Assembly (NCBI RefSeq): GCF_003334335.1
Contig: NZ_QOWQ01000053.1
DNA from: Escherichia coli
Lineage (GTDB): Bacteria > Pseudomonadota > Gammaproteobacteria > Enterobacterales > Enterobacteriaceae
Reading direction: 5' to 3' (one strand)
DNA length: 20,311 nt
Each line of letters begins with the position of its first letter. Position 1 is the stretch's first letter. This document shows, one piece after another, positions 7,770 to 18,262 of this stretch. The notes under the pieces were generated by a model. The model made no database searches. It worked only from the letters and a program-made list of their open reading frames with translations, and was not told the DNA's origin. A program made the position numbers and the translations under genes.

Positions 7770-10049
7770 ATGAGCGAGCCGTTAATTGTCGGCATCCGGC
7801 ATCATAGTCCGGCCTGCGCCCGGCTGGTGAAATCGTTAATCGAAAGCCAGCGGCCACGATACGTATTGATTGAAGGCCCGGCTGATTTTAATGACCGGGT
7901 AGACGAACTGTTTTTAGCCCACCAGCTTCCGGTAGCTATTTACAGTTATTGCCAGTATCAGGACGGTGCAGCCCCCGGGCGTGGTGCCTGGACGCCATTT
8001 GCTGAATTTTCGCCGGAGTGGCAGGCGCTACAAGCCGCACGTCGTATTCAGGCACAAACTTACTTCATCGATTTGCCTTGCTGGGCGCAGAGTGAAGAAG
8101 TGGACGATTCGCCTGATACGCAAGAGGAAAGCCAGGCCTTGCTGCTGCGTGCCACCTGCATGGATAACAGCGACACCCTGTGGGATCACTTGTTCGAAGA
8201 TGAAAGCCAGCAAACTGCATTACCCTCTGCACTGGCGCACTATTTTGCCCAACTGCGGGGCGACTCCCCCGGAGATGCTCTCAATCGTCTGCGCGAAGCC
8301 TTTATGGCCCGCTGGATTGGATGGGCGATGCAGCAAAATAATGGCGACGTGTTAGTTGTCTGCGGTGGCTGGCACGCTCCGGTACTGGCAAAAATGTGGC
8401 GCGAATGCCCGCAGGAAATTAACACGCCAGAATTGCCGTCGCTGGCAGATGCCGTTACAGGTTGTTATCTCACCCCCTACAGTGAAAAGCGCCTTGATGT
8501 GCTGGCAGGATACCTTTCCGGAATGCCTGCCCCGGTCTGGCAAAACTGGTGCTGGCAGTGGGGCTTACAGCAGGCGGGAGAACAACTGCTAAAAACGGTT
8601 CTCACCCGTTTGCGCCAGCACAAGTTGCCTGCTTCGACCGCGGATATGGCTGCCGCTCATCTGCATGCGATGGCACTGGCACAGTTGCGCGGTCATACAC
8701 TACCGTTACGCACTGACTGGCTGGATGCCATAGCAGGATCGCTGATTAAAGAAGCCCTGAATGCGCCGTTGCCGTGGAGCTATCGCGGCGTTATTCATCC
8801 CGACACCGATCCGATTCTGCTAACGTTGATAGACACATTAGCGGGTGACGGATTCGGTAAACTTGCCCCTTCTACGCCACAACCTCCTCTGCCAAAAGAT
8901 GTCACCTGCGAACTGGAACGTACCGCAATCTCCCTTCCGGCGGAGCTTACCTTAAATCGCTTTAACCCCAATGGACTAGCGCAAAGTCAGGTGTTACATC
9001 GGCTGGCAATACTGGAGATCCCAGGGATTGTGCGCCAGCAGGGAAGCACACTGACACTTGCAGGCAACGGTGAAGAACACTGGAAATTAACCCGCCCGCT
9101 TAGCCAGCATGCGGCATTGATTGAGGCCGCCTGCTTTGGTGCCACACTCCAGGAAGCCGCACGCCATAAATTAGAAGCCGATATGCTGGACGCGGGTGGA
9201 ATCGGCAGTATCACCACATGTCTTAGCCAGGCGGCGTTAGCGGGTCTGGCGTCCTTCAGTCAACAATTACTGGAGCAACTCACATTATTAATCGCCCAGG
9301 AAAATCAATTTGCCGAAATGGGCCAGGCGCTGGAAGTGCTATATGCCTTATGGCGGCTGGATGAAATTAGCGGTATGCAAGGCGCGCAGATATTACAAAC
9401 GACGTTATGCGCGGCTATCGATCGCACGCTGTGGCTGTGTGAATCTAACGGCAGACCGGATGAAAAGGAGTTTCACGCTCACCTGCATAGCTGGCAAGCG
9501 CTTTGCCATATTCTGCGCGATCTACATAGCGGCGTTAATTTATCCGGCGTTTCGCTTTCTGCGGCGGTAGCCTTACTGGAGCGACGCAGTCAGGCGATTC
9601 ATGCCCCGGCGCTGGATCGCGGCGCGGTTCTTGGCGCACTAATGCGTCTGGAACATCCCAACGCCAGTGCCGAAGCGGCGCTGACGATGCTGGCGCAGTT
9701 ATCCCCGGCACAATCCGGCGAGGCGCTGCACGGTTTGCTGGCATTAGCCCGTCATCAACTGGCCTGTCAGCCGGCATTTATCGCCGGTTTCAGCAGTCAT
9801 TTAAATCAACTAAGTGATGCCGATTTTACCAATGCCCTGCCCGATTTACGCGCGGCAATGGCCTGGCTACCGCCACGAGAACGCGGGACGCTGGCGCATC
9901 AGGTGCTTGAGCATTATCAACTGGCGCAACTTCCCGTTTCGGCACTGCAAATGCCGTTGCATTGTCCACCGCAAGCCATTGCACATCATCAACAACTCGA
10001 ACAGCAGGCACTGGCATCGCTGCAACACTGGGGAGTTTTCCATGTCTGA
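7770..10049 (+). CDS. yehM: YehM, large protein (759 aa) of unknown function
   Basis: ATG at 7770 is 10 nt after the yehL stop, with GAGGA immediately upstream. The ORF-track start at 7602 would overlap yehL by 158 nt. The stop overlaps the yehP start (ATGTCTGA). Confidence 0.8.
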   Translation: MSEPLIVGIRHHSPACARLVKSLIESQRPRYVLIEGPADFNDRVDELFLAHQLPVAIYSYCQYQDGAAPGRGAWTPFAEFSPEWQALQAARRIQAQTYFIDLPCWAQSEEVDDSPDTQEESQALLLRATCMDNSDTLWDHLFEDESQQTALPSALAHYFAQLRGDSPGDALNRLREAFMARWIGWAMQQNNGDVLVVCGGWHAPVLAKMWRECPQEINTPELPSLADAVTGCYLTPYSEKRLDVLAGYLSGMPAPVWQNWCWQWGLQQAGEQLLKTVLTRLRQHKLPASTADMAAAHLHAMALAQLRGHTLPLRTDWLDAIAGSLIKEALNAPLPWSYRGVIHPDTDPILLTLIDTLAGDGFGKLAPSTPQPPLPKDVTCELERTAISLPAELTLNRFNPNGLAQSQVLHRLAILEIPGIVRQQGSTLTLAGNGEEHWKLTRPLSQHAALIEAACFGATLQEAARHKLEADMLDAGGIGSITTCLSQAALAGLASFSQQLLEQLTLLIAQENQFAEMGQALEVLYALWRLDEISGMQGAQILQTTLCAAIDRTLWLCESNGRPDEKEFHAHLHSWQALCHILRDLHSGVNLSGVSLSAAVALLERRSQAIHAPALDRGAVLGALMRLEHPNASAEAALTMLAQLSPAQSGEALHGLLALARHQLACQPAFIAGFSSHLNQLSDADFTNALPDLRAAMAWLPPRERGTLAHQVLEHYQLAQLPVSALQMPLHCPPQAIAHHQQLEQQALASLQHWGVFHV

Positions 10050-16944: not shown

Positions 16945-17013
16945 ATGGCGCTTTACACAATTGGTGAAGTGGCGTTGCTTTGTGATATTAACCCTGTCAC
17001 GTTACGCGCGTGA
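16945..17013 (+). pseudogene. mlrA: 5' remnant of mlrA (yehV): first 22 codons, then a premature stop created at an insertion junction
   Basis: Encodes MALYTIGEVALLCDINPVTLRA, the start of a MerR-type HTH, then TGA at 17011-17013. Where a MerR recognition helix should continue (W-x-RRYGLL), the downstream sequence is unrelated. Confidence 0.8.
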
Positions 17014-17177
17014 CGCAACATTTTTAAAAATCGACGAAGATCGTCCAGGAGCGCCGTTTTTCAAGGGTTGGATAGATGATTCGTTTACCATGTCGACGAA
17101 CTTCGACGAATTTCGCCGATAAAAAGTGTCCCATACATGCCCCATTGATGCCCCATAAACAATATCAGGAATTGACA

Positions 17178-17222
17178 CTGGTTATCCATACAGACAAAAA
17201 TAACACCTGTACATAACCACAG
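17178..17222 (+). promoter_or_regulatory. Two LexA-box-like palindromes (SOS operators) upstream of the dinI homolog, with an adjacent consensus -35
   Basis: CTGG-N8-ACAG at 17178-17193 and a perfect CTGT-N8-ACAG at 17207-17222. TTGACA at 17172-17177 abuts the first box. AGGAGG RBS at 17227-17232. Confidence 0.6.
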
Positions 17223-17237
17223 TTACAGGAGGGTGTT

Positions 17238-17486
17238 ATGCGTGTTGAGATCTGTATCGCTAAAGAAAAAATCAGCAAAATGCCAAAAGGTTCTGTTTCT
17301 GCCCTGCAGCAAGAAATGCTTCGACGTGTCAGTAAACGTTATGACGATGTGGACGTGATTGTCAGAGCCGCCAACAATGACAGTCTCACCATTTTAAGAG
17401 CTGTAGATAAAGAATCCGCGCACGAATTTGTTCAGGAAACACTGCAGGAAGCCTGGGAAACCGCTGACGACTGGTTTATTCGGTAA
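17238..17486 (+). CDS. DinI-family protein (82 aa), prophage-encoded homolog of the SOS protein DinI
   Basis: [10 protein letters not shown]...[10 protein letters not shown]...[17 protein letters not shown] parallels E. coli DinI as I recall it (MRIEVTIAK...AANNLSVIG...QETWESADDWFVSE). Strong RBS and LexA-like boxes upstream. Confidence 0.8.
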
Positions 17487-17497
17487 ATCTTCTTTAC

Positions 17498-17526
17498 GGG
17501 GAGTTAACTTACTCCCCATTTTTTAT
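17498..17526. terminator. Rho-independent terminator after the dinI homolog (possibly bidirectional)
   Basis: GGGGAGT, loop TAACTT, ACTCCCC, followed by ATTTTTTATT. On the minus strand the same hairpin immediately follows the stop of the small ORF at 17523. Confidence 0.7.
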
Positions 17527-17654
17527 TGCATGATAATTGCAGCAACGGCACAGAGTGTCACCACACCACCCAGCCACACAAACAGCATGAAGCACATTGC
17601 TCCCGCTGTATAACGTTTTCTCCCGTACATACGGCATTTGTCTTTATTCATCAT
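17523..17654 (-). CDS. Candidate small tail-anchored membrane protein (43 aa)
   Basis: MMNKDKCRMYGRKRYTAGAMCFMLFVWLGGVVTLCAVAAIIMQ: basic N-terminus then a single ~23-residue hydrophobic segment. AGGGG lies a few nt upstream of the ATG. The stop is followed directly by the hairpin at 17498-17517. No homology is asserted. Confidence 0.3.
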   Translation of the reverse strand: MMNKDKCRMYGRKRYTAGAMCFMLFVWLGGVVTLCAVAAIIMQ

Positions 17655-17700
17655 CTGCCCCTGAATCACATGAAGACGCTGCAGGTCCGGTAACACTGAA

Positions 17701-18174
17701 TCACTCCGCACACGCAAGATGTTTCACGCTCACACCATACAGCCCGTTTTTCGCCATTCCCGTATACAGAAAGGTATTCACCGTCTTCGTGTGAATGCCC
17801 ATTTCACTGGCAAGGCGACAGGGTCTCGACTGGCGGTAGACGTAGCCAAACATCACCACCATCTCTGACATCGTCAGCGGACGGGCAACGCTGTTATACG
17901 TCCATACACCATTGCGTATGGCATCACTTATCTGCTCACCATCACGGAGTGATTCCGCACCCAGTTGCAGAAAATGCCGTCCCTGGAACATGCAGCGCAT
18001 CAGTCTGCCCAGCAACGTATCACAGATTATCAGCCAGGATTCGTCAAAGTCCGGGATATAACGGCGGTTCTCCGGCAGGAAAAACTCCCTCGCCAGTATC
18101 ACACTGTGTTCCTTCAGTAACGCCTGCAGACCATACTCCAGATAGCGATTCCTGGTAGCCAGAATCACCTTCAT
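17701..18174 (-). CDS. LuxR/GerE-type HTH transcriptional regulator (157 aa) with an atypical N-terminal domain
   Basis: C-terminal segment LTMSEMVVMF...RLASEMGIHTKTVNTFLYTGMAKNGL fits the LuxR-family HTH pattern (compare ...EIA..LGIS.KTV..H..NI..KLG). The N-terminus (MKVILATRN) is receiver-like but lacks the acidic pocket. Start chosen at the ATG with an AGGAAGG RBS. Confidence 0.6.
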   Translation of the reverse strand: MKVILATRNRYLEYGLQALLKEHSVILAREFFLPENRRYIPDFDESWLIICDTLLGRLMRCMFQGRHFLQLGAESLRDGEQISDAIRNGVWTYNSVARPLTMSEMVVMFGYVYRQSRPCRLASEMGIHTKTVNTFLYTGMAKNGLYGVSVKHLACAE

Positions 18175-18262
18175 CGCAGCACCTTCCTGTTTTTTATGCC
18201 CCATGAAAAACGGCAGACCAGAGTCCTGCGCCTGCCGTCATGCTTCATGTCACTGTCAGCAA

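Follow-up and report, generated by a model that had tools for sequence, protein, structure and literature searches.

We analysed a stretch of 20,311 nucleotides of Escherichia coli DNA (contig NZ_QOWQ01000053.1 of assembly GCF_003334335.1), called the window below, that runs from the bacterial chromosome into the end of a lambdoid prophage. Just inside the prophage lies a gene for a protein of the DinI family, and its promoter overlaps two palindromes that resemble operators of the repressor LexA. From the sequence evidence, this dinI-like gene is likely to be a cassette, repressed by LexA and induced in the SOS response, that supplies the damaged host with a protein binding the RecA filament. 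The feature is real but common, and it has essentially been described already. The initial annotation of the window had recognized the DinI family, the prophage edge and the LexA-like operators, all of which stand, but the novelty that it implied was overstated: the promoter and an SOS box are already annotated in the prophage VT1-Sakai. The modestly new detail appears to be a conserved second, distal LexA operator in the promoter spacer of this edge-of-prophage dinI lineage. None of the public records examined annotates the distal operator, and we found no E. coli paper describing it, within a literature coverage that is incomplete and gives absence of evidence only. The main value of the analysis is to close a question: the feature was correctly read, is common and was previously annotated.

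Two putative LexA operators at the dinI promoter

A promoter scan predicts a sigma-70 promoter, TTGACA-18-AAAAAT, upstream of the dinI-like gene, with 10 of 12 positions matching the consensus (Table 1). A promoter at dinI is also annotated in the GenBank record of VT1-Sakai (AP000400) and in phage mEp460. The distal palindrome, putative operator 1, occupies the spacer between the -35 and -10 hexamers. The proximal palindrome, putative operator 2, begins beyond the -10 at a distance of 4 nt and lies over the predicted transcription start, with 13 nt between the operator and the ATG; it is the element annotated as ‘putative SOS box’ in AP000400. The coordinates that the initial annotation gave for TTGACA, both palindromes, the ribosome-binding site and the open reading frame are exact, base for base. 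It had placed the two boxes between TTGACA and the ribosome-binding site, which is right as to order, but box 1 is within the -35/-10 spacer and box 2 covers the predicted start.

The bare pattern CTGT-N8-ACAG is weak evidence, because with at most one mismatch it has 9 matches in the window against 6.2 expected and is not rare. We scored the window with a symmetrised 20-nt LexA matrix, whose 18 underlying E. coli boxes come from a published table (PMC3009722). These reference boxes score between 13.0 and 28.3 bits, the weakest being polB at 13.0. Both palindromes came out on top of the 20-kb window. The distal box ranks first with 14.4 bits, within the reference range, and the proximal box ranks second with 11.9 bits, slightly under polB; the orthologous boxes have 14–24 bits. 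In the initial annotation, the pair was described as one perfect site and one with a single deviation. Both sites are present, but the CTGG of box 1 is no real deviation, since the validated boxes of ruvA, cho and dinG have CTGG as well, and the matrix puts this box above the supposedly better, ‘perfect’ box 2.

Among 1000 random windows generated with a first-order Markov model (Markov-1), one or more sites reaching 11.9 bits were present in 16% and two in 1.5%, and in 0 of the 1000 were two such sites 16–60 bp apart. In 20,000 random 226-bp sequences with the local AT-rich composition of the region upstream of the gene, one site of at least 11.9 bits was found in 0.25%, and two sites never. 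The matrix ranking and these random controls rule out a chance origin of the pair, for which the count of the bare pattern is insufficient. The prophage part of the window is nearly identical to Escherichia phage PhiR5_1 (see below), and the other 50 kb of that phage contain no LexA-like site of 10.4 bits or more. Thus, the dinI promoter is the phage's only candidate LexA-controlled promoter. The third-best matrix match in the window, at 19357–19376 with 8.2 bits, was rejected as a LexA box for its wrong spacing, CTG-N13-CAG. The palindrome at this place, CTGTATACAAATAAAACAG (19359–19377), lies 22 nt upstream of the start of a YadA-like gene. Its left half is identical to that of the relatives' proximal dinI box (CTGTATACAAA). 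For LexA, however, the spacing has 3 nt too many, and the palindrome could be either a remnant or coincidental.

Homologous loci were collected from IMG/VR, a genome collection and GenBank phages, and the 150 nt upstream of each start codon were scanned. Among homologs of at least 60% identity, 33 of the 34 distinct promoters carry both boxes, mostly of 20–24 bits, at fixed distances of 41/42 nt and 13 nt from the ATG. The sole exception is the single-box promoter of Klebsiella phage P12620-1. The homologs of at most 46% identity, from SPN3UB, mEp237, pAEv1818 (nin region) and four Klebsiella phages, represent 6 distinct upstream sequences, each with one strong box of 25–27 bits located 15–19 nt from the ATG. 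This layout matches that of chromosomal dinI (a 22-bit box at 19 nt) and the published Gifsy distance. A seventh distant homolog, from Yersinia phage YeP1, had no scored site; the CTG that tblastn extrapolated for it is not a real start codon. A separate observation concerns the IMG/VR locus L017, where the dinI-like copy at 1501–1746 has an internal stop, is probably a pseudogene, and keeps both LexA boxes intact.

We then aligned 29 distinct two-box promoters and counted non-consensus cells. The CTG/CAG triplets of the two boxes (12 positions) deviate in only 1 cell of 348, and the -10 hexamer in 2 of 174 (1%). The proportion is 3% for the -35 hexamer, 10% for the box interiors and 21% for the other positions between the -35 and the ATG. 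It reaches 33% in the 37 nt upstream of the -35, where the sequences form at least five unrelated groups. Such a pattern is expected if selection preserves the contacts of LexA and RNA polymerase. Matrix score, promoter position and selective conservation agree, and they favour reading the palindromes as predicted LexA operators, as the initial annotation had done.

The DinI-like protein and its predicted role

The product of the gene is an 82-residue protein that belongs to the DinI family, as had been proposed. It matches all of Pfam PF06183 (DinI; E-value 5.9e-16, model positions 1–63 of 63) and the PHROG family phrog_189, ‘RecA filament binding protein DinI’ (E-value 1.3e-25), of whose 151-position profile it covers positions 71–149 only. 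Full-length matches were obtained to the structures of DinI alone (PDB 1GHH) and of DinI on the RecA filament (PDB 7YWA), both with an E-value of 1e-11, and the identity to K-12 DinI is 39%. An AlphaFold2 model computed from a 15-sequence alignment has a predicted local distance difference test score (pLDDT) of 88.2 and the order of elements E-H-H-E-E-H. It is a small alpha/beta protein with a long C-terminal helix, as in the DinI fold. In a Foldseek search, the model has template modelling (TM) scores of 0.81 to 1GHH and 0.80 to 7YWA, and the next PDB match has an E-value of 0.03. Cryo-electron microscopy of the RecA-DinI complex and mutagenesis showed that a hydrophobic pocket (L13, L21, W71, W77 and F78) and the acidic residues E24, E69 and D76 are needed for filament stabilisation (PMC9926225). 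In the alignment, the counterparts are M15, L23, E26, E71, W73, D78, W79 and F80. Seven of the eight are identical and the eighth, methionine for L13, is a conservative change. The protein is predicted to bind the RecA filament.

In an undamaged cell, host LexA dimers would sit on operator 1 in the -35/-10 spacer and on operator 2 at the transcription start, and the promoter would be shut. After DNA damage, RecA filaments would stimulate the self-cleavage of LexA and the dinI promoter would fire. The DinI-like protein that is made would then bind the site on the RecA filament that is also used by LexA, UmuD and CI-type repressors. DinI shares the filament groove with LexA, UmuD and lambda CI and stabilises filaments (PMC9926225); it is also reported to inhibit the coprotease activity of RecA (references cited in PMC3121763; PMC9926225). 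The CI protein of PhiR5_1 has HTH_3 and Peptidase_S24 domains, which mark it as a repressor of the RecA-stimulated, self-cleaving type. Considering how DinI uses the groove, stabilises filaments and inhibits the coprotease, the phage copy could delay or otherwise modulate the cleavage of CI. A tuning of repressor cleavage by the phage DinI-like protein is plausible.

A more far-reaching proposal, which we regard as speculative and doubtful, is that the two-operator dinI cassette serves as a phage-owned, dosage-scalable modulator of the RecA filament. Its product would compete with CI-type repressors for the groove or stabilise filaments, and in this way the cassette would govern the threshold at which prophages are induced or the moment of their induction. 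It would also couple the induction of co-resident prophages in polylysogens such as O157, and the lineage-specific weakening of its operators would tune the threshold. If prophage DinI copies do alter RecA-dependent repressor cleavage, they would influence the induction of Shiga-toxin (Stx) phages and the shut-off of the SOS response in many pathogenic E. coli.

Several points weigh against a tightly LexA-controlled cassette that acts on RecA. With 14.4 and 11.9 bits, the two operators of the window are the family's weakest, and the proximal box is below the weakest of the 18 reference sites, which makes leaky repression possible. The matrix itself is based on these 18 sites only, and the compared promoters share ancestry, meaning that the conservation counts are not independent events. 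Measured from start to start, the boxes are 29 bp apart here; in most relatives the distance is 28 bp, in two it is 27 bp, and a Citrobacter copy has 26 bp. Because it varies over 26–29 bp, helical phasing is not kept, which argues against phased cooperative binding; two LexA dimers more probably bind independently than as a phased, cooperative complex. On the side of the protein, the score against the NCBIfam DinI equivalog NF007893 is 66.7 bits and does not reach the cutoff of 111. By this measure it is a DinI-like paralog and not an ortholog of chromosomal DinI; RefSeq names it ‘DinI-like family protein’. Finally, the effect of prophage DinI on induction is a functional question beyond sequence, and the one published test was negative: non-polar deletions of the dinI homologs in Gifsy-1 and Gifsy-3 did not significantly affect induction (PMC3121763).

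The low scores raise the question whether the operators have decayed in this copy, leaving a largely constitutive gene in the lysogen, that is, a lysogenic-conversion gene without tight SOS control. Of all versions in the family, these two boxes score lowest. In box 2, ACC stands in place of TAC and there is an extra C, which bring it under polB, and the weaker forms of both boxes are common to the yehV-integrating lineage, which includes VT1-Sakai. However, neither box has lost the CTG-N10-CAG frame, a site of 13.0 bits (polB) is listed among the SOS boxes, and the -10 is flanked by two sites. The same weak variants also persist in several diverged members of the lineage, suggesting that they are tolerated and functional. 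Decay of the operators is therefore unlikely in our judgement. We are still less inclined to believe that box 2 is the only working LexA site and that box 1 is kept merely as a promoter spacer or by recent common descent. The depositors of VT1-Sakai annotated box 2 alone, and a single box suffices for chromosomal dinI, for the nin-region phage homologs and for the homolog of Klebsiella phage P12620-1. Yet box 1 outscores box 2 in the window, and in most relatives its 20–24 bits equal those of strong chromosomal sites. Moreover, spacers are normally unconstrained, whereas the CTG/CAG triplets of box 1 are invariant save for one cell while its interior varies.

Two further explanations would change the regulator or the target of the cassette, and we consider each of them highly improbable. 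The palindromes adjoin probable integrase arm sites and have a common operator shape, as they would if they were operators of a phage regulator such as the immunity repressor, Int or Xis. But the motif is specifically LexA-like, it has no further copy elsewhere in the phage, and it is kept in lambdoid phages of the Stx1, Stx2 and non-Stx kinds as well as in Citrobacter, with differing flanks and integration sites. The other explanation assigns the cassette to a LexA-controlled antirepressor system that drives induction directly, like the dinI-antirepressor operon of Gifsy or Tum of phage 186. These are the best-studied LexA-controlled phage dinI loci, and VT1-Sakai has a co-directional small open reading frame, H0002, after dinI that is annotated as sharing its promoter. 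This possibility was rejected on four grounds: the stop codon has a strong terminator behind it, the three neighbours beyond are convergent, the phage repressor is a self-cleaving S24-type CI, and the protein has 82 residues without an N-terminal extension, matching positions 71–149 of the PHROG profile only. A LexA-repressed, SOS-induced dinI cassette is the reading that we retain.

The cassette in its prophage setting

The left 17 kb of the window are E. coli chromosome (metG ... yehR, yehS, btsR, btsS/yehU) and end in a remnant of mlrA (yehV), which is annotated as an incomplete coding sequence in NZ_AP045179 and as yehV' in AP000400. The att core at the junction is identical to the feature ‘attachment site of VT1-Sakai’ in AP000400. 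From 17012 to its end, the window differs by 1 mismatch in 3300 nt (99.97% identity) from the right end of PhiR5_1 (PV340545), a lambda-like phage whose host, according to the record, is E. coli C. PhiR5_1 has the gene order int-xis ... cI-cro-cII-O-P ... Q-lysis-head-tail-J-lom-tail fibre, after which come the genes of this window. Genes annotated as HipA toxin and HipD antitoxin lie between kil and cI at PhiR5_1 7915–9488, outside the window. The initial annotation had located the dinI-like gene at the edge of a prophage, and this is where it lies: about 230 bp within the end of the lambdoid prophage inserted in mlrA/yehV, in the b-region, immediately inside attR and between the tail-fibre region and attR.

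Table 1. Features at the prophage end of the window and of the dinI cassette, with positions in the window.
Feature	Position	Strand	Remarks
mlrA (yehV) 5' remnant	16945..17010	+	reads MALYTIGEVALLCDINPVTLRA, then a fortuitous stop; interrupted by the prophage after 22 codons
att core CCTGTCACGTTACGCGCGTG	16993..17012	.	20 bp; prophage/chromosome junction, prophage rightwards from ~17012
Terminator-like hairpin across the att core	16995..17025	+	TGTCACG-TTACGCG-CGTGACG and a T run; terminator scan
Probable arm-type integrase repeats GTGTCCCAT-ACATGCCCCAT-TGATGCCCCAT	17126..17156	+	end 15 bp before the -35
-35 TTGACA	17172..17177	+	promoter scan; also left boundary of the mobile dinI module
Putative LexA operator 1 (distal) CACTGGTTATCCATACAGAC	17176..17195	.	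core CTGGTTATCCATACAG at 17178–17193; occupies the -35/-10 spacer
-10 AAAAAT	17196..17201	+	between the two operators; promoter scan
Putative LexA operator 2 (proximal) ACCTGTACATAACCACAGTT	17205..17224	.	core CTGTACATAACCACAG at 17207–17222
Shine-Dalgarno AGGAGGG	17227..17233	+	strong; sequence reading
DinI-like protein, 82 aa	17238..17486	+	ATG..TAA; PF06183, 1GHH/7YWA, phrog_189, model
Intrinsic terminator GGGGAGT-TAACTT-ACTCCCC and T6	17498..17524	+	starts 12 nt past the stop codon; terminator scan

The hairpin across the att core may insulate the dinI cassette by stopping transcription that enters from the truncated mlrA. Once the phage is circular, int and dinI have the same orientation across attP, and the hairpin may stop transcription coming from int as well; the dinI promoter directly follows int in phage mEp460. 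Between the att core and the -35 there are three direct repeats, (G)TCCCAT / GCCCCAT / GCCCCAT, spaced by 10–11 bp. An inverted copy of the repeat, ATGGGGCATACATGGGACAC, is present at the opposite prophage end beside the 3' end of int (PhiR5_1 53–72). The repeats resemble the arm-type integrase sites of attP, so that the dinI promoter probably abuts the P' arm.

Megablast matches from prophages integrated elsewhere start exactly at 17172, and the -35 is thus the point where homology among unrelated prophages begins. At the other end, the RNA fold of the terminator has -13.6 kcal/mol (z -4.5), and 0 of 200 shuffled sequences were as stable. On the opposite strand, the three genes that come next converge on this terminator. 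With its own promoter and terminator and convergent neighbours, the dinI-like gene is monocistronic. The cassette is a phage moron, having its own promoter and its own terminator, lying outside the core operons and being independently mobile. Of 5426 complete E. coli genomes, 2005 (37%) carry the module (at least ~65% nucleotide identity), in up to 8 places per genome, and its product is annotated everywhere among them as ‘DinI-like family protein’.

The three convergent neighbours are conserved phage genes or possible cargo. The minus-strand open reading frame at 17523–17717 (64 aa, phrog_9340) has a hydrophobic C-terminal half and is shorter in the PhiR5_1 record; that at 17701–18204 encodes 167 aa (phrog_6585). 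The gene at 18263–19336, also on the minus strand, encodes a protein of 357 aa that has a signal peptide and, at the C-terminus, a membrane anchor of the YadA type (phrog_9547, NCBIfam YadA_autotrans domain), and is annotated by RefSeq as a YadA C-terminal domain protein. It may be a trimeric autotransporter cargo as in the Eib prophages; the dinI region has a 92.6% match to prophage P-EibC. A promoter-like site, GTGACA-17-AATTAT with an upstream TG, was noted by consensus match only at 17533–17561 on the minus strand, pointing at the 3' end of dinI, and may yield an antisense transcript through the dinI terminator.

Comparison with known systems

The closest known counterpart is H0001 (dinI) of VT1-Sakai / Sp15 (AP000400), which has the same yehV/mlrA site, the same att core and the same position at the prophage edge. 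Its promoter-operator region is identical to that of the window at 64 of 66 nt, both boxes included. Upstream of ‘DNA-damage-inducible protein I’, the record lists a ‘putative promoter of H0001 and H0002’ together with a ‘putative SOS box’ for which ‘LexA protein’ is given as the bound protein; only the proximal box is marked. The proteins are just 66% identical, so that the promoter is nearly fixed while the gene is mosaic. The first ~90 nt of the window's dinI gene are nearly identical to H0001 and the middle is sharply divergent, which suggests a recombination breakpoint inside dinI. Downstream, VT1-Sakai has the co-directional H0002, where the window has a terminator and convergent genes.

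The dinI homologs of the Salmonella prophages Gifsy-1, -2 and -3 are likewise prophage genes of the DinI family with a LexA box near the ATG and a terminator-like palindrome before it, and they are induced by DNA damage (PMC3121763; PMC8072944). Their induction by mitomycin or nalidixate and its dependence on LexA have been shown (PMC3121763; PMC8072944), and it amounts to 4.6- to 23-fold with nalidixic acid (PMC8072944). Experimental LexA control is known only for these more distant homologs and is predicted for the gene described here. The Gifsy genes lie ~1.3 kb downstream of the replication genes, with one box 19 nt from the ATG (PMC3121763; PMC8072944), and dinI heads an operon that also contains an antirepressor gene and irsA. 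The window gene, in contrast, is monocistronic, has two boxes and is located at the attR edge; no antirepressor gene is co-oriented downstream of it, and the phage repressor is of the cleavable and not the non-cleavable type. The window protein is also unlike Tum of phage 186, which is LexA-controlled and DinI-like in its C-terminal half but has 146 aa, including an N-terminal antirepressor half (PMC3121763), whereas the window protein is DinI-only.

The dinI-like gene c0943, from a prophage of E. coli CFT073, decreased along with sulA, umuD and recN in an E. coli line whose SOS response was damped (PMC2817434). The chromosomal dinI of E. coli K-12 shares with the window gene the fold, the conserved RecA-contact residues and a LexA-repressed promoter. 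Its promoter differs in having the single 22-bit box, with no second site above 5 bits. SOS promoters with several operators are known, with two boxes at lexA, three at recN and two at Salmonella dinI (Table 1 of PMC8072944). Unlike these, the promoter in the window has two boxes that bracket the -10, at a spacing of 26–29 bp among its relatives.

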